Below are positions 2,048 through 10,488 of a stretch of 36,328 bases of DNA, piece by piece (within the stretch, counting starts at the first letter, position 1; each line of letters opens with the position of its first letter). The stretch is from a virus. Under the pieces are notes generated by a model, which was given only the letters and a program-made list of their open reading frames with translations, searched no databases and was not told the origin of the DNA. Location: positions 1-36,328 of the IMG/VR virus record IMGVR_UViG_3300000053_000001, one strand, 5' to 3'. The position numbers and the translations under genes are program-made.

Positions 2048-5000
2048 TTATACAGTATCCCACTGCGCGGACGTCCCGAGAAGCTTCTCGGCGTAGGCCA
2101 GTGTGCGGTTAATTGACGTATCCGTTACCCGACCGCTCACGAACCCCTGCGCCACCTCCGGAGCCAGCGCCCCCACCAGTCGCGCCAGCGATATGCCGGA
2201 GGGGCGGTAACAGCGAGAAGCAACGGCGAGGAGCTTCTCGATCATCTCCAGAGAGTGATACTTTTCATCTGTGCTTATACCCTCACAATGCAAAGTATCA
2301 CTGTCGCTGCAGGTCACGGGCTGCGGGGCTTCCAGCCCGATGGGAAGGTCGTCGGGCGACGGCTTGGGCTGGTAGTCGCTGGCAGCCTCGTGGGTCGTCA
2401 GCGAGTGCACGCCAAGCGCCTGACGACGCAAGACGTAGACCATCACGAAGGACCACCGGTCGGCATTGATCGAGAACAGGTTGCGCCCGTTGCTGGCGCG
2501 CTTCTCAACCGCAAGGCCAAAGCGCTCGAGCACCGACTTGACCAGCGTGGTGGCGCACACTTTGGCGCTGACGCTGTGCAGATGCCGGCCAACGCGCAGG
2601 GCGTTGTAGGCATCAAGCGCCTGCTGGCTCGCGGTGATCTTGGCGAGAATCTGCTTGCACTGCTCGGCAGAGAACTCGCCGGCACCGGTGTGGCGGTCGA
2701 GGCCGAGGGTCTCGAACAGTTCCACCAGGAACGCCCGCGCCGCGGTCTTGTAGCGGTGCTGAGTGAGCACGACGCGGGCCTTGCGCTGCGCCTCGTCATA
2801 GGCCCTCGCCTGGGCTTCATCGGCCTGCAGCAGCTCGACAGCCACGACCTTGGCGATACCCCGGTCATCGTAGAAGGAAACGTCGTCCTCGGTGGGCTCG
2901 TCCACGCCCAGCTGGTGCGCAAGGTGGTAGCGGTCAACCTGGGCGCTTTCTGTCTCGCTGCGCACTTCCTGACGGTTGAGGCGGCCGAAGGTCTCCTCGT
3001 CGGGCACCTCGACACTGGTCAGCAGATCCATGCGCCTGGCGAAGACGAGCTCGCCCGCGTGCTTGCGGTTGCTGCGACTCTCCTTCGTGCGCTCGGGGTC
3101 GTCGAGATCCGCGCGCGCGACTTTGTAGCCGTCAGCGATCAGCATCAACAGGAGGTTGTTGGCGAAATCATTGCGTGCCTTGTTTTCAGTGGTGACGCTG
3201 GTCAGGTACAAATGATCAAAAGCGGTTTTCTTCCTGACGAAACGCGCCTCGCCGGCATCCTCCTCGAATGCAAAGGTGACCTCGTCGAGCTGCATCAGCC
3301 CGCGATAGATGGCCTCCGGGTCCGTGGCGCGCTGGGCTGAGCTGTGGCCGATGCCGACCAGGTACTCGCGCGCAGTACGGTCGCGGCGCAGCATCTGAAC
3401 GGCGTCGGAGGGGCTCACGGTGTTGCCGCTGAACAGACCTACATGGCGCTCGAAGTGGGGCGTGGTCATGGACACGCCCGAGCTGATCGCCGGCGAGTAG
3501 ATCAGGACGTCGTACTTCACCGCCTCGGCGTTGGGGCTGCGCAAGAAGGCCTCGACATTCGGGTCGGCCTTGCTGTCGGCATGCACCAAGAGCATGCGCA
3601 CCGGCTTGCATTCGCCGTGCTCGATGCGCTCCTCGATCAGGGCCGCCAGCTTCTTGGCCGACTCGGCCGAATCGTTCGCGACCAAGACGCGCTTGCCGGC
3701 GCAGATCCAGTCGAGAGCGACCTGCCATGCGGTCTCGTCGTCGGTGTGATTGACGCGGATGTGATCGGTCTGACCGACGACCTCGAGGATGGTGATCGTC
3801 TGGCCGGGGCGTGCGAGCTCGCAGAATTCGACCACCGCGTCGTTGGCGTCGGCGTCGCAGAGCAGCACGCGCCGCGCGGAGGCGACCGCGTCGAGCAGGG
3901 CATCGAACACGCGCACGCGGCCGTCAACCGGCCCGGTGGCAGTGTGGCTGATCACTTGACTGGCTTCGTCGATGCAGAGCGTGTCGACGGTGGTAAACCA
4001 CGACCTCTCGTCGGTGTTGTAGAACTTGGGATGGGTCAACGAGTTGACGCAGCAAGCCAGGTGCGAGACGTCGCGCATCCAGGCGGCCGAGACCTGCTGG
4101 TAGTGCTGGATATTCAGGCGCGAGGCAGCGTCGTCGAGCAGCGAGACGCGGTGGGCGATATAAGCCGCTTTCGGGGCAGCCTGCATCAGAGGCGCGATCA
4201 GTTTCTCGGTCTTGCCGGAGCCCATCGGCGCACGGCTGATGATCATTCCCTCGAGGGAGTCGACCAGGTCGGCGAAGTGGGCCGGCAGCTCAATACCACC
4301 GTGCGCGGCACGCACGCCTTCGACGCGCAGGTGCTGCACGTGAGGCTTGGCCAGTGTGGCAGCGGAAAAGCCGCGCAGCTCGCGGGCCTGCTGCAGCTTC
4401 TGGTCGGCCAGCCATTTGACGAAGCGGCGGAGCTTGAGGCGGTCGACCGCGACGCCCGCCGGGATGCGCTCAAGCACCAGGCGCAGCACTTCGCTGCCGG
4501 TGTAGCGAATCGGCACCAGGAGCATGCCCGCGGCTGCCGCCGACTTAGCGGCCTTCTCTGCGGTGACGCCGGAGTAGCCGAGGCGCTGCAGGCTGTAGGC
4601 GAACCAGTCTTTCTCGGCACGCAGCACGCTGTCGCGCGCGCGCAGGGCCTTGGCCGTGGCAGCCAGGCCGAACAGGCAGTGGTAGTCGTTCCAGTCGGTC
4701 GGCCCCTTGCGGCTCGCCCGCGCGATCTCGATCGCCTGCTCGCCGATCTCGGCGAAGCTGGGGAGGATGGCCGGGTGCTGCAGCTCGCGGTGGATCTCGA
4801 GCCCGGCCAGCACGCCGGCGTTGCCCTTGTCCGACTTCCAGCAGTCGTTGTCGGCGGCGTTGTGGAAGCGCCAGGCCGGGTAGTGCCTGGTGTACTGGCG
4901 CAGCACCTTGCCGAGGTTGTCGACGTTGAAGGCGACCACGACGGCCACGTCGTTGCCAGCCTCGAGCTCGGCCAGATAGACGCTGGCGCCGGTAGCGAAG

Positions 5001-5845
5001 CCCTCGACGCTGTAGCGGCGGTCGGCGGTTTCGAGGTCGCCGAGGATGCAGTGGGCGCCGTCCATCCTGACGCCAGTGCCCTGCATTTTCTTGTCGGCAT
5101 AGAGTCGCTGCACGCCGAGAAACCCACCGGAGATATTGAGCAGCGGCACGGCGGTGAATTCGCCGTGACTGTCACGCATACGCTGCATTTTGAAGCGTGA
5201 CGCGATGGCGCCGATCTGTTTCGCCTGAAGGTAGGGGGCGCTGCCGTCCTCCTCGCCGATGACCTCGACGAAGCCCTTGCACAGCTTGCCGCCGACCTCG
5301 CGCTCGAACTCGTGACGCCCGCCGCAATGCCACGCGGCCTCATAGGCCAGCCGCTCGCGGTGGATCCGCGCCTCGGCTTCTGCCCGGCGTTGCTCGGCCT
5401 CTTTCTGCGCAGCCTCACGCTTGGCACGCTGCTCTTCCTGCCGCGCCAGCCATTGCTGGTGCTTCTCGCTGGCGACATTGCCGCCTTCGCGCCTATAGAG
5501 ATCGGCGAGCGCGACGAGGCCCGACCAGGTGACGTGGCCGTATGCCGGGTTGTTGTTGTTGAAGGTGAAGAAGGGGTACTCGAAGTCGTCGCCGCGCTTG
5601 GTGTCGCCCCACGCCATGACCTTGCCGCGGTGGGTCTTGTCGGTGACGCCGTCCTTGCCCTTCGGCCGCGCCTTGTCGCCGCGCAGGCCGATATCGTTGC
5701 GAATGGCTGACCAGCGAATGCCGACACTGGCGGCGGCGTCGGCGATATCGCCGTCGAAAAAGTCGATCAGTGACCAGGGGTCGGAGCGGAACCGTTCGGC
5801 GTAGAACCGGGCCAGTGCGCTTGTGTTGTCCTTAGCGTCTTGCAT
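2048..5845 (-). CDS. repA: RepA-like replication protein (TOPRIM primase + P-loop helicase), N15 RepA type
   Basis: 1265 aa from the ATG at 5845 (AAGGA upstream). TOPRIM-like acidic motifs VEGFATGASV and HNAADNDCW are present, as are Walker A PMGSGKTEK and Walker B-like LCIDEASQV. The gene sits next to tel, as in N15-like phages. Confidence 0.8.
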   Translation of the reverse strand: MQDAKDNTSALARFYAERFRSDPWSLIDFFDGDIADAAASVGIRWSAIRNDIGLRGDKARPKGKDGVTDKTHRGKVMAWGDTKRGDDFEYPFFTFNNNNPAYGHVTWSGLVALADLYRREGGNVASEKHQQWLARQEEQRAKREAAQKEAEQRRAEAEARIHRERLAYEAAWHCGGRHEFEREVGGKLCKGFVEVIGEEDGSAPYLQAKQIGAIASRFKMQRMRDSHGEFTAVPLLNISGGFLGVQRLYADKKMQGTGVRMDGAHCILGDLETADRRYSVEGFATGASVYLAELEAGNDVAVVVAFNVDNLGKVLRQYTRHYPAWRFHNAADNDCWKSDKGNAGVLAGLEIHRELQHPAILPSFAEIGEQAIEIARASRKGPTDWNDYHCLFGLAATAKALRARDSVLRAEKDWFAYSLQRLGYSGVTAEKAAKSAAAAGMLLVPIRYTGSEVLRLVLERIPAGVAVDRLKLRRFVKWLADQKLQQARELRGFSAATLAKPHVQHLRVEGVRAAHGGIELPAHFADLVDSLEGMIISRAPMGSGKTEKLIAPLMQAAPKAAYIAHRVSLLDDAASRLNIQHYQQVSAAWMRDVSHLACCVNSLTHPKFYNTDERSWFTTVDTLCIDEASQVISHTATGPVDGRVRVFDALLDAVASARRVLLCDADANDAVVEFCELARPGQTITILEVVGQTDHIRVNHTDDETAWQVALDWICAGKRVLVANDSAESAKKLAALIEERIEHGECKPVRMLLVHADSKADPNVEAFLRSPNAEAVKYDVLIYSPAISSGVSMTTPHFERHVGLFSGNTVSPSDAVQMLRRDRTAREYLVGIGHSSAQRATDPEAIYRGLMQLDEVTFAFEEDAGEARFVRKKTAFDHLYLTSVTTENKARNDFANNLLLMLIADGYKVARADLDDPERTKESRSNRKHAGELVFARRMDLLTSVEVPDEETFGRLNRQEVRSETESAQVDRYHLAHQLGVDEPTEDDVSFYDDRGIAKVVAVELLQADEAQARAYDEAQRKARVVLTQHRYKTAARAFLVELFETLGLDRHTGAGEFSAEQCKQILAKITASQQALDAYNALRVGRHLHSVSAKVCATTLVKSVLERFGLAVEKRASNGRNLFSINADRWSFVMVYVLRRQALGVHSLTTHEAASDYQPKPSPDDLPIGLEAPQPVTCSDSDTLHCEGISTDEKYHSLEMIEKLLAVASRCYRPSGISLARLVGALAPEVAQGFVSGRVTDTSINRTLAYAEKLLGTSAQWDTV
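2254..2302. repeat. 11-bp perfect inverted repeat in an AT-rich island inside the repA 3' end (candidate ori)
   Basis: AGTGATACTTT (2254-2264) pairs with AAAGTATCACT (2292-2302) across a 27-bp A/T-rich spacer. The local composition is clearly lower in GC than the rest of repA. Confidence 0.35.
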
Positions 5846-5856
5846 GTTGTTCCTTT

Positions 5857-5889
5857 GCACAAAAACGCAAAAGCACAAAAGAACAATCC
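5857..5889. repeat. Iteron-like A-rich motif cluster (locus A) immediately upstream of repA
   Basis: The sequence is GCACAAAAACGCAAAAGCACAAAAGAACAATCC. ACAAAAGAACAA (5875-5886) is identical to 35879-35890 in the parA iterons. CAAAAGCACAAAA (5868-5880) is identical to the reverse complement of 12684-12696. Confidence 0.6.
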
Positions 5890-7824: not shown

Positions 7825-8179
7825 AGCCGAGAACAACGAAGATGCGGTCGAGCTGGCAGATCTGTCGCTCGACCTCGAGGAGCCAGCCCCGGCCGGCGAG
7901 ACAGCAGAGGAGCGCAAGCGCCGCCATGCGCGGATCCGCAAGCGTCGCCAGCGCCGCCGCGAGGAGCTGGCCACACTGCGCGCCGCCTCTCGGCCGATCA
8001 CCTTCGAGGCCTACCAGGGCACGCAGGCGGATCTGGCGCTGATCTGCGAGCTCGGCGGATTTGAGGAGCCGGCCGAGGCGATAACGCTGATCCTGCGCAA
8101 CGTCGCGGAGCTTGGCAGGCGTGACCATCACGCCTTCGAGCAATTTACCCGCATTCCGTCACGCAATAGGGGCGAATGA
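7817..8179 (+). CDS. Hypothetical protein with an arginine-rich tract, possibly RHH-like
   Basis: The ATG at 7817 has GGGAGG 7 nt upstream. It contains an acidic N-terminus, then ERKRRHARIRKRRQRRRE, then the strand-helix-helix-like RPITFEAYQGTQADLALICELGG...AITLILRNVAEL. Confidence 0.5.
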   Translation: MLEAENNEDAVELADLSLDLEEPAPAGETAEERKRRHARIRKRRQRRREELATLRAASRPITFEAYQGTQADLALICELGGFEEPAEAITLILRNVAELGRRDHHAFEQFTRIPSRNRGE

Positions 8180-9027
8180 TGACGACGCTGCGCCTGAACC
8201 CCGCCGCCTCGCCCTCACGCCTCACCGCGCCCCTTAGCTACTACGTCATCGACACGCCTACCCCGGCGTGGGATGCGCCGTCTGTGGGCGTATCTCGGCA
8301 CGGCTCGACGGTGACCGACCATGACCGCGCCGTGATGCGCGACCTGGTGCTCGGCGCCTTCCTCGCGCCGCAGCACTTTCGCGAAGACGACGGCAAGCGC
8401 GTGGGCGCCTACACCAGTGAGAACACCCGCGACACCATTCCGGCCAGCATCCTCGAGGAGCGGGCCGAGTGCCCGGTCAACGGCGCGCCGCCCGGGAGGC
8501 TGCCGTCGGCCTACGTCGCGGCCCTGGCAAAAGGAACTACTCGAGTGATCGCCAGCGAGACCCGGCCGAAGAAGAAAAGCAGCATCCCGCTTGGGCCGAT
8601 GGCCTTTCAAGATGCCCGCATCGTGCGCGCAGTTGGCCAGCTCGCGCCGGAGCATCAGCACTGGATCCGCTACGTCTACGCCGACTCGAAGGCATGGGAT
8701 GACGAAGCCGGCGCGGTGATTGAGCTGTGGGCACGCTACGAGCCCCGGCTCGGCAAGGTGCAGGCGAAGACGCGGCAGAAAGCCAAGGGTCTGGCGCACC
8801 TCGCCGTGCAGGACGTGAAGCGCTTCGTGAATGCCGGCAAGGAGCTGCACGCGGCCTGCCGCCTGCGCGAGCTGCTGGGCGTCTCTGCTCCGAACTGGGA
8901 TCAACACTGGTGCCCGCGCTGGCAGGCGATGCGCAGCGAGGCTTTTGCGATGGACCGCCGCGCGCTAACCGCGCTCTGCAAGGAGCTGGCGGGCTTTCGG
9001 TTTGTTCTTGTGGATAGGGGGCTGTGA
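8176..9027 (+). CDS. Putative late-gene antiterminator (Q-like)
   Basis: It has an ATGA overlap with the preceding gene. Motifs HQHWIRYVYADSKAWDDE and LRELLGVSAPNWDQHWCPRWQAM resemble the phage antitermination Q family as I remember it. A promoter plus terminators lie downstream. Confidence 0.5.
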   Translation: MMTTLRLNPAASPSRLTAPLSYYVIDTPTPAWDAPSVGVSRHGSTVTDHDRAVMRDLVLGAFLAPQHFREDDGKRVGAYTSENTRDTIPASILEERAECPVNGAPPGRLPSAYVAALAKGTTRVIASETRPKKKSSIPLGPMAFQDARIVRAVGQLAPEHQHWIRYVYADSKAWDDEAGAVIELWARYEPRLGKVQAKTRQKAKGLAHLAVQDVKRFVNAGKELHAACRLRELLGVSAPNWDQHWCPRWQAMRSEAFAMDRRALTALCKELAGFRFVLVDRGL

Positions 9028-9950
9028 TGGCCGCCTATTACAACGAAATCGAACCGTATGCCGCGCAATGGCTGCGGAACTTGATCGCTGCGGGCTTGAT
9101 TGCCCCGGGCGACGTAGACGAACGGAGCATTTTGGATGTCCACCCTGACGACCTCAGAGGCTATACGCAGTGCCATTTCTTCGCCGGCATTGGCGTCTGG
9201 TCCCATGCCCTGCGCCGCGCCGGCTGGGGCGACGACAGACCTGTTTGGACAGGTTCCTGTCCGTGCCAACCTTTCTCCTCGGCAGGCAAAGGAGCTGGGT
9301 TTACTGACGAGCGGCACCTGTGGCCCGCATGGTTCCACCTCGTCACGGAAGCGAAGCCAGGCTCTATCCCTATCTTTGGCGAGCAAGTTGCGAGCGCTGA
9401 CGGCCTCGCTTGGCTCGACCTTGTATCGGCTGACCTGGAAGGAGCGGGTTACGCCGTCGCACCGGTCGATCTATGCGCTGCGGGCGTGGGCGCTCCGCAC
9501 ATCCGCCAACGACTGTGGTTCGTGGCCGAAAGGGTGGCCAACGCCAAAGGCTTGCGACGCGAGGGGGTCGGGAGGCCGCCGGCCTGGGAAGGCAAACGAA
9601 GAGCTGACGAATGCGGCAGCGCTGGCGGGCTGGCCGACAGCAACCGTCAACGACAGCCGGGGCGGGCGAAACATGACCGCCAAGCGCTCGAATCCGAACA
9701 GCCAGCATCATGCGGGAATGACGCTGGTCGACGCGGTGTCGATTCTCGGCCCGGCGCGGTTAACGGCTTCTGGTCAGATGCTGACTGGATCAGCTGCCGG
9801 GACGGACGCTGGCGGCCAGTTGAATCCGGAACATTCCCGCTGGCTGATGGGGTTGCCGGCCGAGTGGGCCAACTGCGCGCCTACGGCAACGCCATCAACG
9901 CGGAAGTCGCGACGGCTGTGATCGGGGCCTACATGGATCTTCGACCATGA
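9027..9950 (+). CDS. DNA (cytosine-5) methyltransferase (frame A; GTG 9024 or ATG 9027 start)
   Basis: Motifs present are FFAGIGVW (I), [12 protein letters not shown] (IV), FGEQV (VI), [12 protein letters not shown] (VIII) and [13 protein letters not shown] (X). The segment 9531-9870 has poor codon bias in this frame (see findings). Confidence 0.7.
9136..9921 (+). other. Overlapping +1-frame ORF (frame B) carrying methyltransferase TRD-like and C-terminal-like motifs
   Basis: Frame B encodes [29 protein letters not shown] and [17 protein letters not shown]. By hand count, third-position GC over 9532-9873 is about 75% in this frame and about 63% in frame A. Confidence 0.4.
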
Positions 9951-10258
9951 TCCCTTGCTCGCAATGCGGCACCGCTCCCGAGCGCCGGCTAGATCCGCAG
10001 ACGGGGCGGATGGTGTACGCCTGCCCGGGCTGCCGGCATCGGGGCGATATCACCACCAGCGAGGTCGCCGCGGCGGCCACCTGGGCGCTGGTGAACGATC
10101 CGGAAATGGATCGGCACACGTGCAAGGCGGCGATGCTGCCGCGCTACTTCGAGGCAGGCGGTAAGTGGGGCGCCCGCTGTCGCGGCTGCGGGCACCAGGT
10201 CGAGGGGTACGGGAGCGTGCCGGGCGCCCGCGCGGCATGGGCGAGGTCTATGCGATGA
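9947..10258 (+). CDS. Zn-ribbon protein, tandem Lar-like (restriction alleviation family) units
   Basis: It has an ATGA overlap with the methyltransferase stop. It contains CSQCG...CPGCRHRGDITTSEVAAAATWA and a second unit, CRGCGHQVEGYGSVPGARAAWARS. Confidence 0.4.
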   Translation: MIPCSQCGTAPERRLDPQTGRMVYACPGCRHRGDITTSEVAAAATWALVNDPEMDRHTCKAAMLPRYFEAGGKWGARCRGCGHQVEGYGSVPGARAAWARSMR

Positions 10259-10488
10259 AGCGCCGCGTCCTGCGAATCCATCGATGCTCTGACCCGCTTA
10301 TGTGGTACCGGGATCTTGTCGGCACACTGGTTGACTATCGGAGTCGCGACGCCGACGGCTACTGGTCCCGGGAGCCTGGCGGCTATACGAATGTCATCCG
10401 TCCTGGCGATGCGGTGCTGCTCGAGCTCGAGGAGGAAACCATTAAAGAGCAAAAGAACATTTGCACCTTTGCAGAAAAGCGTTTTTAG
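10255..10488 (+). CDS. Hypothetical protein (77 aa)
   Basis: It has an ATGA overlap with the upstream gene and GAGG upstream. Its 3' end runs into the AT-rich late-promoter region. Confidence 0.45.
   Translation: MKRRVLRIHRCSDPLMWYRDLVGTLVDYRSRDADGYWSREPGGYTNVIRPGDAVLLELEEETIKEQKNICTFAEKRF
10444..10459. repeat. Iteron-like motif (locus D) just upstream of the late promoter
   Basis: AAAGAGCAAAAGAAC (10444-10458) differs at one position from AAAGAGCAACAGAAC (35866-35880) in the parA iterons. Confidence 0.5.

Follow-up and report, generated by a model that had tools for sequence, protein, structure and literature searches.

In M.HhaI, a monomeric C5 DNA cytosine methyltransferase, the large domain is made up of an N-terminal part and the C-terminal motif X helix, and the small domain, which comprises target recognition and motif IX, is inserted between them. 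Here we analyze a locus at positions 9024-9950 of a viral DNA of 36,328 nucleotides (nt) (IMG/VR record IMGVR_UViG_3300000053_000001; this whole stretch is referred to below as the window), where two overlapping open reading frames (ORFs) very probably encode the two subunits, alpha and beta, of an enzyme of this class. The arrangement is not new in principle, since it was shown for M.EcoHK31I in 1995 and the inner ORF has already been noted by some GenBank annotators. M.EaeI, an isoschizomer of M.EcoHK31I, may share its organization. As summarized in PMC2836561 and PMC3404938 (after Lee, Kam & Shaw 1995), M.EcoHK31I (E. coli HK31, YGGCCR) is a C5 methyltransferase whose beta polypeptide is encoded wholly inside the alpha gene in another frame, and both polypeptides are required for methylation. 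According to the same two sources, its alpha contains motifs I-VIII and X together with a predicted target-recognition domain, and its beta contains motif IX. The beta N-terminus is reported there to mediate the association of the subunits, which deletions weaken (PMC2836561; PMC3404938, citing Lee, Kam & Shaw 1995 and Fung et al. 2006): the first ~40 residues are described as largely dispensable, and further N-terminal deletion weakens the association. M.AquI of Agmenellum quadruplicatum (Karreman & de Waard 1990, as cited in PMC3404938) is another naturally split C5 enzyme, whose subunits must assemble.

In the window, a first-pass annotation made from the letters alone had pointed to two open frames with methyltransferase-type motifs. 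Both ORFs were found as described, all the motifs of both frames lie where they had been placed, and the proportions of G or C at third codon positions, previously counted by hand, were recovered as 63.7% (A) and 74.3% (B) over 9531-9870. Frame A (9024/9027..9950, 308/307 amino acids, aa) is open throughout; frame B (9136..9921, 261 aa, ATG start, +1 relative to A) is also open and lies wholly inside the alpha ORF:

9027..9950, + strand: alpha ORF (frame A), 307 aa from the ATG at 9027, with the GTG at 9024 as an alternative; putative large/catalytic subunit of a C5 DNA methyltransferase
9136..9921, + strand: beta ORF (frame B), 261 aa, +1, matching phrog_1008 and phrog_31772

The likeness to M.EcoHK31I, assessed by description and not by sequence, is that of a two-ORF C5 enzyme with beta inside alpha in another frame; in addition, the dispensable start of ~40 residues of the M.EcoHK31I beta resembles a 44-codon leader of the beta of the window, which is unconstrained. 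However, M.EcoHK31I is part of a restriction-modification pair, whereas the gene of the window is an orphan in a temperate phage, located between Q-like and Lar-like genes. Furthermore, beta has 261 aa and is modular in the window, compared with 176 aa in M.EcoHK31I, the alpha of the window has a II-III-like segment before motif I, and its interval between motifs VIII and X is unconstrained and disordered, with the conserved sequence in beta. M.AquI is likewise a natural two-subunit C5 methyltransferase, but as described in PMC3404938 it is cut in the variable region into consecutive subunits, alpha with motifs I-VIII and beta with the rest of the variable region and motifs IX-X; its beta shows no out-of-frame embedding and carries motif X, whereas the putative motif X of the window belongs to alpha. 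The large-domain motifs of M.HhaI align with the alpha of the window and the fold matches, but its small domain (target recognition and motif IX) is in the same chain and frame. A homologous ORF pair is present in Paenibacillus phage Shelly, where gp55 and gp56 correspond to alpha and to an internal +1 ORF with WxTP modules and ...GQLNPEWVECLMGFPIGW, and E. coli K1 phages (K1ind2, K1H) and Xanthomonas PhiXhv phages are doubly annotated in a similar way. Shelly gp55 and gp84 of Mycobacterium phage KBG differ from the alpha of the window in their canonical I-II-III order, the II-III-like segment being the first one in the latter.

The maintenance of both frames was evaluated by a scan of IMG/VR, which provided 80 related loci; 75 unique genes were used for the counts of starts and junctions given below. 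Frames A and B were open in 80/80 loci, with a gene G+C content (GC) of 0.51-0.69 and stop-to-stop lengths of 286-492 codons for A and 216-341 codons for B, and the third forward frame of the relatives was open for just 21-123 codons around the same point. Beta is embedded in alpha in all the relatives examined, with the exception of 6 of the 75 genes, where it ends 10-16 nt beyond the alpha stop. When the codons were shuffled synonymously with protein A fixed, a mean of 3.8 stops appeared in B and a median of 0.7% of the shuffles stayed open; with protein B fixed, the mean was 7.1 stops in A and 0.08% stayed open. The few stops scored in the real genes are boundary effects (in 7 genes B starts 6 nt after the fixed start, and in 6 B passes the A stop). 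Since shuffles seldom leave the other frame open, the dual openness is not a by-product of either protein sequence. In a tblastn search against 50,697 phage records, A matched 404 and B 219, at the same loci and in two different frames. Both frames are open in Vibrio phage Vaitephage (A 308 aa, B 261 aa with an ATG start, gene GC 0.51), in Salmonella phage SW3 (gene GC 0.57) and in Paenibacillus phage Shelly. Separate homology searches with each frame, proposed at the outset as a check, led to separate PHROG families, phrog_363 for A (E 7e-83), and phrog_1008 (5e-31) and phrog_31772 (1e-35) for B. An assembly in ENA is 100% identical to the window over 8736-10321, although it may stem from the same sample, and a relative of equal length and 87% identity (L085), available from three sources/assemblies, retains both frames.

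Selection along each frame was assessed with pairs less than 62% identical in A, comparing the rate of identical codons at identical A residues with the expectation from codon usage. The observed/expected synonymous-codon identity along the gene was as follows:

9036-9135: alpha before beta, 1.04
9135-9266: first 44 codons of beta, 1.14
9267-9530: dual region, N-terminal, 1.92
9531-9761: alpha linker, 1.96
9762-9920: dual region, C-terminal, 1.95
9921-9947: after the beta stop, 0.94

In the test for synonymous-site constraint, another check that had been proposed, alpha is neutral outside the constrained part of beta (0.94-1.14) and conserved about twofold inside it (1.92-1.96). At the protein level, the aa identity of A was 0.46-0.94 over 9036-9530 and 9762-9926 and only 0.08-0.20 over 9531-9761, where the synonymous sites of B are free (0.31-0.41). 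The comparison with L085, which differs from the window at 90 nt, gave the same picture at short range. There are 24 differences in 9531-9755, which amount to 23 nonsynonymous and 1 synonymous in A and to 4 nonsynonymous and 20 synonymous in B, and 18 of the 24 fall at codon position 1 of alpha. At the protein level, selection acts on the N-terminal 170 and the C-terminal ~60 residues of A, and on B from about residue 45 through to the end; ~88 + 50 codons are constrained in both frames, and the middle of A is only kept open. The conservation of B starts at about nt 9267 and is not confined to the middle and C-terminus, which corrects the first-pass annotation. Of the three explanations considered there, genuine dual coding is the one that holds: both frames are open in every relative, with purifying selection in defined segments of each. 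The locus is a case of dual coding maintained by selection, and neither an indel nor a programmed frameshift is supported as its cause.

The alpha protein matches phrog_363 from end to end (aa 2-306 against positions 9-315 of a profile of 327, E 7e-83). PF00145 matches aa 76-171 only (E 1e-10), and the whole-protein score of 29 bits is below the TIGR00675 cut-off of 100.65. By hhalign, alpha 39-170 aligns with M.HhaI 4-172 (E 2.6e-11), covering motifs I, IV, VI and VIII. Foldseek searches with the AlphaFold2 (AF2) model of alpha returned M.HhaI, M.HaeIII and DNA methyltransferases of the DNMT type as top matches over ~170 columns, which correspond to the large domain. In this model, aa 1-170 are confident, aa 179-247 have no secondary structure, with a predicted local distance difference test score (pLDDT) of 32-46, and the terminal helix is confident. 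The segments recognized along alpha are the following:

9036..9119, + strand: candidate motif II-III-like segment (...GDVD), preceding motif I, with the likeness judged by eye; AF2 pLDDT 87-97
9174..9194, + strand: motif I HFFAGIG, S-adenosylmethionine (AdoMet) binding, compared with M.HhaI DLFAGLGG; H51, F52, A54, G55 and G57 invariant
9258..9290, + strand: motif IV with the catalytic Cys81, compared with M.HhaI GFPCQAFSISGK; invariant in 78 sequences
9375..9389, + strand: motif VI FGEQV (ENV equivalent), compared with M.HhaI FMENV; G119, E120 and Q121 invariant
9492..9530, + strand: motif VIII, compared with M.HhaI IPQKRERIYMICF; R161, Q162 and R163 invariant
9531..9761, + strand: alpha linker, aa 170-246, open, unconstrained at the protein level and predicted to be disordered, in place of the small domain of monomers
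9762..9947, + strand: alpha C-terminal conserved segment (NGFW...), aa identity 0.46-0.90, with the putative motif X and the terminal helix

The catalytic P-C-Q is present, as CPCQ (alpha aa 79-82) aligns with GFPCQ of M.HhaI, and motifs I, VI and VIII correspond as HFFAGIG/DLFAGLG, FGEQV/FMENV and IRQRLW/KRERIY (alpha/M.HhaI). The hhalign alignment leaves a gap of 35 residues in alpha exactly at motifs II-III of M.HhaI, and the alpha N-terminus appears to be permuted with respect to canonical C5 methyltransferases, with the II-III-like segment placed before motif I (9036-9194). The hidden Markov model and hhalign alignments stop short of motif X, for which the sequence YGNAI (9882-9896; GNAI 9885-9896) is found at alpha aa 287-291, with N289 invariant; it is followed by a helix at 293-306 with a pLDDT of ~88, and the C-terminal segment matches the C-terminus of KBG gp84, RVDRNRALGNAVVPQVAEFV. 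Between motifs VIII and X of the alpha chain we found neither a target-recognition domain nor a motif IX, aa 170-246 being unconserved and disordered. Judging from its sequence and model, alpha resembles a large domain in which a spacer has taken the place of the small domain.

The beta ORF has a start of its own, followed by a leader, a conserved domain and a modular region:

9124..9127, + strand: candidate Shine-Dalgarno-like site of beta, GGAG, 8 nt upstream of the beta ATG, formed by the alpha Arg-Ser codons CGG AGC
9136..9138, + strand: beta start codon ATG, formed by the alpha Asp-Val codons GAT GTC
9136..9267, + strand: beta leader, aa 1-44, open, with almost no added constraint on the alpha synonymous sites; AF2 pLDDT <50
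9268..9531, + strand: beta N-terminal conserved domain, aa 45-132 (NLSPRQAKE...LRA..RTS), overprinted on alpha motifs IV-VIII
9532..9567, + strand: WPTP module 1; W134, T136 and P137 invariant or nearly so
9628..9666, + strand: WPTP module 2, from family alignments
9817..9867, + strand: motif IX-like segment with invariant or near-invariant columns, sharing its nucleotides with a conserved stretch near the alpha C-terminus; pattern L-x-P-x4-(W/V)-x-MG-x-P-x2-W

The start of beta is conserved. GATGTN is found at this site in 62 of the 75 unique genes, compared with GAT at 40.5% of all other Asp codons there, and [AC]GG AGY is found at the Shine-Dalgarno position in 41 of the 75. An in-frame ATG within the beta leader is present in 75/75 genes, 58 of them at the same position, and 44 of those 58 with a Shine-Dalgarno-like site. 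In addition, most of the beta-family proteins called by gene finders begin at the same profile position. Regarding homology, beta aa 11-252 match positions 15-286 of the 329 of phrog_1008, and beta aa 132-260 match positions 8-143 of the 145 of phrog_31772, both families being labelled DNA methyltransferase. In the beta model, confidence is limited to a helix (69-92) plus a hairpin (97-119), with a pLDDT of 71-89. By analogy with M.EcoHK31I, whose beta N-terminus mediates the association of the subunits (PMC2836561), beta aa 45-132 can be read as the putative alpha-binding part. Family members have between 0 and 5 WPTP-x-x-D modules in beta, a number that follows the length of beta, and the lengths of alpha and beta co-vary (r=0.95). 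The sole conserved sequence encoded in the VIII-X interval is that of frame B, namely the WPTP-x-x-D modules and the near-invariant motif IX-like segment. Because the VIII-X interval of alpha is unconstrained, target recognition is more likely to reside in beta. Among 240 retrieved proteins there was no convincing natural single-chain alpha-beta fusion; the only co-occurrence found by regular expression, P0222, has a WPTP-like pattern inside the alpha linker that we judged to be due to chance.

The family is broad and its annotation is irregular. KBG gp84 has 237 aa and only ~45 residues between motifs VIII and X; the KBG +1 ORF ends with ...FWPTPTASN...NPNHTEWLMGFPDGW, and gp84 and this ORF match phrog_363 and phrog_1008. 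Both ORFs are present in gene 58 of E. coli phage N15 (L090, 1078-1725), where beta is open only from ~274 nt into alpha and is without the leader and the NLS..QAKE segment. Further tblastn matches were found in epsilon15, in E. coli K1 phages and in phages of Rhodobacter, Xanthomonas, Burkholderia and cyanobacteria. In Burkholderia phages phiBtTUL1a, vB_SR1 and others, the homologous gene has ~1176 nt and aligns as two pieces in both frames, which implies an extra insertion of ~270 nt; its annotation in the records reads 'putative metabolic enzyme' or 'DNA repair protein'. There are at least 4822 clusters homologous to beta, and, in a collection of 1.84 billion clusters at 50% identity, the beta profile matched 22,232 representatives with E<=1e-3 and 8,169 with E<=1e-30. 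A Pfam domain was present on 0/120 of the best beta-profile matches listed. The same sequence can receive two annotations: for the window, JGI calls frame A (P0121), and for the identical ENA copy (L091) only frame B is called (P0001), leaving positions 292-401 of L091 without a gene. JGI and PGAP retain alpha. In GenBank, Shelly gp56 is labelled 'g55 internal gene', the records of K1ind2, K1H and PhiXhv have two methyltransferase features each, and that of Pseudomonas phage PMG1 annotates beta only, as 'DNA methyltransferase, similar to Mte8-like protein of phage K1ind3'. In this PMG1 sequence (L003, 1501-2413), an indel close to the 5' end divides alpha into two tblastn pieces, and beta is intact. 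Another relative, 86% identical (L088, Logan SRR24575594, 1501-2440; protein P0123), has a single indel in the linker, so that the protein called is alpha-N fused to beta-C and the alpha C-terminus lies in the third frame; this reflects either a fault of assembly or the recent inactivation of this copy. Our literature search found no paper analyzing this phage family of overlapping methyltransferases, including the Shelly, K1 and PhiXhv pairs.

The genes next to the locus are on the same strand:

8176..9027, + strand: Q-like antiterminator gene, phrog_304 (E 2e-38); its stop overlaps the alpha start (GTGATGG, 9024-9030)
9947..10258, + strand: Lar-like restriction-alleviation gene, phrog_6795 (E 6e-8); its ATG overlaps the alpha stop (ATGA, 9947-9950)

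PF06323 matches the counterpart of the Q-like gene in L088 and L091. The start/stop overlaps between the Q-like gene, alpha and the Lar-like gene suggest a translationally coupled anti-restriction cassette of a late operon. The GC of the alpha/beta gene in the window is 0.64. Upstream of the block formed by the CII-like, Q-like and methyltransferase genes, the opposite strand carries a 1276-aa replication/primase-helicase-like ORF (2048-5878, -; phrog_4913, E 1.5e-298), and the remainder of the window is a siphovirus-like structural module with terminase, portal, major head protein and tape measure.

From the sequence data and the analogy with M.EcoHK31I, we consider it very likely that the overlapping frames of the locus encode the subunits of one C5 DNA cytosine methyltransferase, and that these two subunits would form a heterodimer of the M.EcoHK31I kind. 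Translation initiated at ATG 9027, in coupling with the stop of the Q-like gene, would produce alpha (307 aa), with an AdoMet-binding/catalytic large domain (the II-III-like segment, then motifs I, IV, VI and VIII), a disordered linker of ~76 residues and a putative motif X segment that would complete the large domain. An independent start at ATG 9136, with GGAG 8 nt upstream, would produce beta in the +1 frame (261 aa), consisting of a dispensable leader (aa 1-44), a helix-hairpin domain (aa 45-132), a variable number of WPTP-x-x-D modules and the motif IX-like segment. Alpha and beta would then assemble into the active enzyme, with beta in the role that the small domain (target recognition plus motif IX) has in monomers such as M.HhaI, and the enzyme would presumably methylate the phage DNA, allowing evasion of host restriction. 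The translation of beta, its association with alpha, its part as specificity determinant and the biological role are what we infer from the observations described above.

Several points weigh against this reading. Beta gave no match in Pfam, NCBIfam or the PDB sequences, beta modelled by itself with AF2 has low confidence (pLDDT 59, predicted template-modelling score 0.25), and a Foldseek search with this model returned nothing below E 0.25. In phage N15 the beta ORF starts further downstream, so that the start site is not uniform across the family. The best hhalign match between the motif IX-like segment and M.HhaI, at 273-292 (KLHPRECARVMGYPDSYKVH) in motif IX (KLHPRECARVMGYPDSY), is not significant (E 0.56); the M.HhaI sequence used in it agrees with the fragments printed in another alignment. 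The initial proposal that B carries the target-recognition and C-terminal motifs of cytosine methyltransferases is consistent with our results, but the sequence statistics fall short of proof. Furthermore, the accounts of M.EcoHK31I in PMC2836561 and PMC3404938 place its predicted target-recognition domain in alpha and not in beta. The order alpha-N, beta-middle, alpha-C mimics that of a monomeric enzyme, and a minor trans-frame product is possible. Finally, the case that both polypeptides would be made and required is an evolutionary one, drawn from purifying selection on both frames and the conserved beta start.

Among the alternatives, it is improbable that beta, although real and selected, works independently of alpha, for example as a DNA-binding regulator or an anti-restriction factor, with alpha inactive or active alone. 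Such a condition would agree with the lack of a significant match of beta to any methyltransferase model and with the deposited sequences of PMG1 and L088, in which alpha or beta is individually disrupted. However, alpha has no conserved sequence between motifs VIII and X, and the ~45 residues of KBG are too short for a target-recognition domain; without an interval that is conserved or long enough, alpha alone has no plausible DNA-recognition module. It should also be noted that alpha and beta co-occur without exception, that beta ends in a pattern typical of motif IX, and that M.EcoHK31I provides a precedent for a two-subunit enzyme.

Somewhat less credible still is that programmed frameshifting, +1 near 9525-9536 and -1 near 9866-9870, produces an alpha-N/beta-middle/alpha-C monomer, possibly beside the unshifted product. 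Read across the frames, the motifs do follow the canonical order, with I-VIII in A, the WPTP modules and the IX-like segment in B, and the putative X again in A. If one base is skipped after FVAE in the window, the reading becomes FVAE-GWPTP, and the frames are also joined by a -1 shift after ...LPAEW. The first-pass annotation had placed an A-to-B junction at 9525-9536. The sequence GCC GAA AGG GTG is indeed there, but it belongs to a different kind of feature and is not a frame junction:

9522..9536, + strand: lineage-specific 12-nt insertion/duplication (GTGGCC GAAAGG GTGGCC), the source of the AAAGGG run

This insertion is limited to the window and a few relatives, and L085 retains it; accordingly, the spacing from HIR.R to WPTP is 49 nt in the window and 37 nt in most relatives. 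The +1 shift proposed there loses its ground, as the AAAGGG run is found only within this insertion and the alignment of the 75 genes has no conserved slippery heptamer at the junction. After motif VIII, most relatives have CTC TAC TGG GTG GCC GAC GCC, which reads RLYWVADA in A and (T)GWPTP in B. In them WPTP module 1 of beta is co-encoded with the last strand of alpha motif VIII (YWVAD), so a shift would delete part of a core strand. Frameshifting also leaves unexplained the openness and constraint of frame B over the 88 codons before the supposed shift, when the first 130 codons of B need not stay open for a shifted product, as well as the conserved ATG and Shine-Dalgarno-like site of beta and the openness of the unconstrained alpha linker in all relatives. 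Besides, two separate polypeptides are sufficient in M.EcoHK31I, as described in PMC2836561.

The probability is negligible that frame B, or the central part of A, lacks a function and reflects only a frame left open by high GC, a homopolymer indel, a pseudogene or an error of sequencing: the gene is GC-rich (0.64), a context where long spurious ORFs are common, and L088 has a single frameshift, but both frames are open down to 51% GC and in a Paenibacillus phage, shuffles predict 4-7 stops, the pattern of substitutions shows that selection acts on B in the central part and on the two frames together in the flanking parts, and the ENA assembly (possibly from the same sample) is identical over the locus, with both frames also kept by the three L085 assemblies.

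Returning to the two-subunit enzyme, a more extended interpretation, which we favor by a slight degree, is that the whole small domain has moved to the +1 frame and has left alpha with a meaningless spacer, the WPTP modules of beta would set specificity, and the N-terminal 90 residues of beta would have arisen de novo as a domain overprinted on the catalytic motifs IV-VIII of alpha. Such an arrangement would be of ancient origin and common to phages of Actinobacteria, Firmicutes, Proteobacteria and Cyanobacteria. Beta would be among the largest families (>20,000 clusters at 50% identity) not covered by any Pfam or NCBIfam model, with annotation pipelines systematically omitting or mislabelling it, and the pair would be among the longest and most widespread same-strand embedded pairs in prokaryotic viruses.

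Long same-strand embedded genes that are selected in both frames are rare, and they have often been doubted in bacteria and phages. In the present case the evolutionary signal is unusually clear, and biochemistry offers a precedent. What makes it noteworthy is this clear signature of selection, together with the size of the family and the systematic gap in its annotation. As gene callers keep one ORF of the two, thousands of genomes are annotated with half an enzyme, and if beta supplies target recognition, specificity prediction or expression from alpha alone is likely to fail. The family also offers a natural benchmark for the detection of overlapping genes, and it would be useful to study how a domain is split off by frameshifts and how new domains originate by overprinting.

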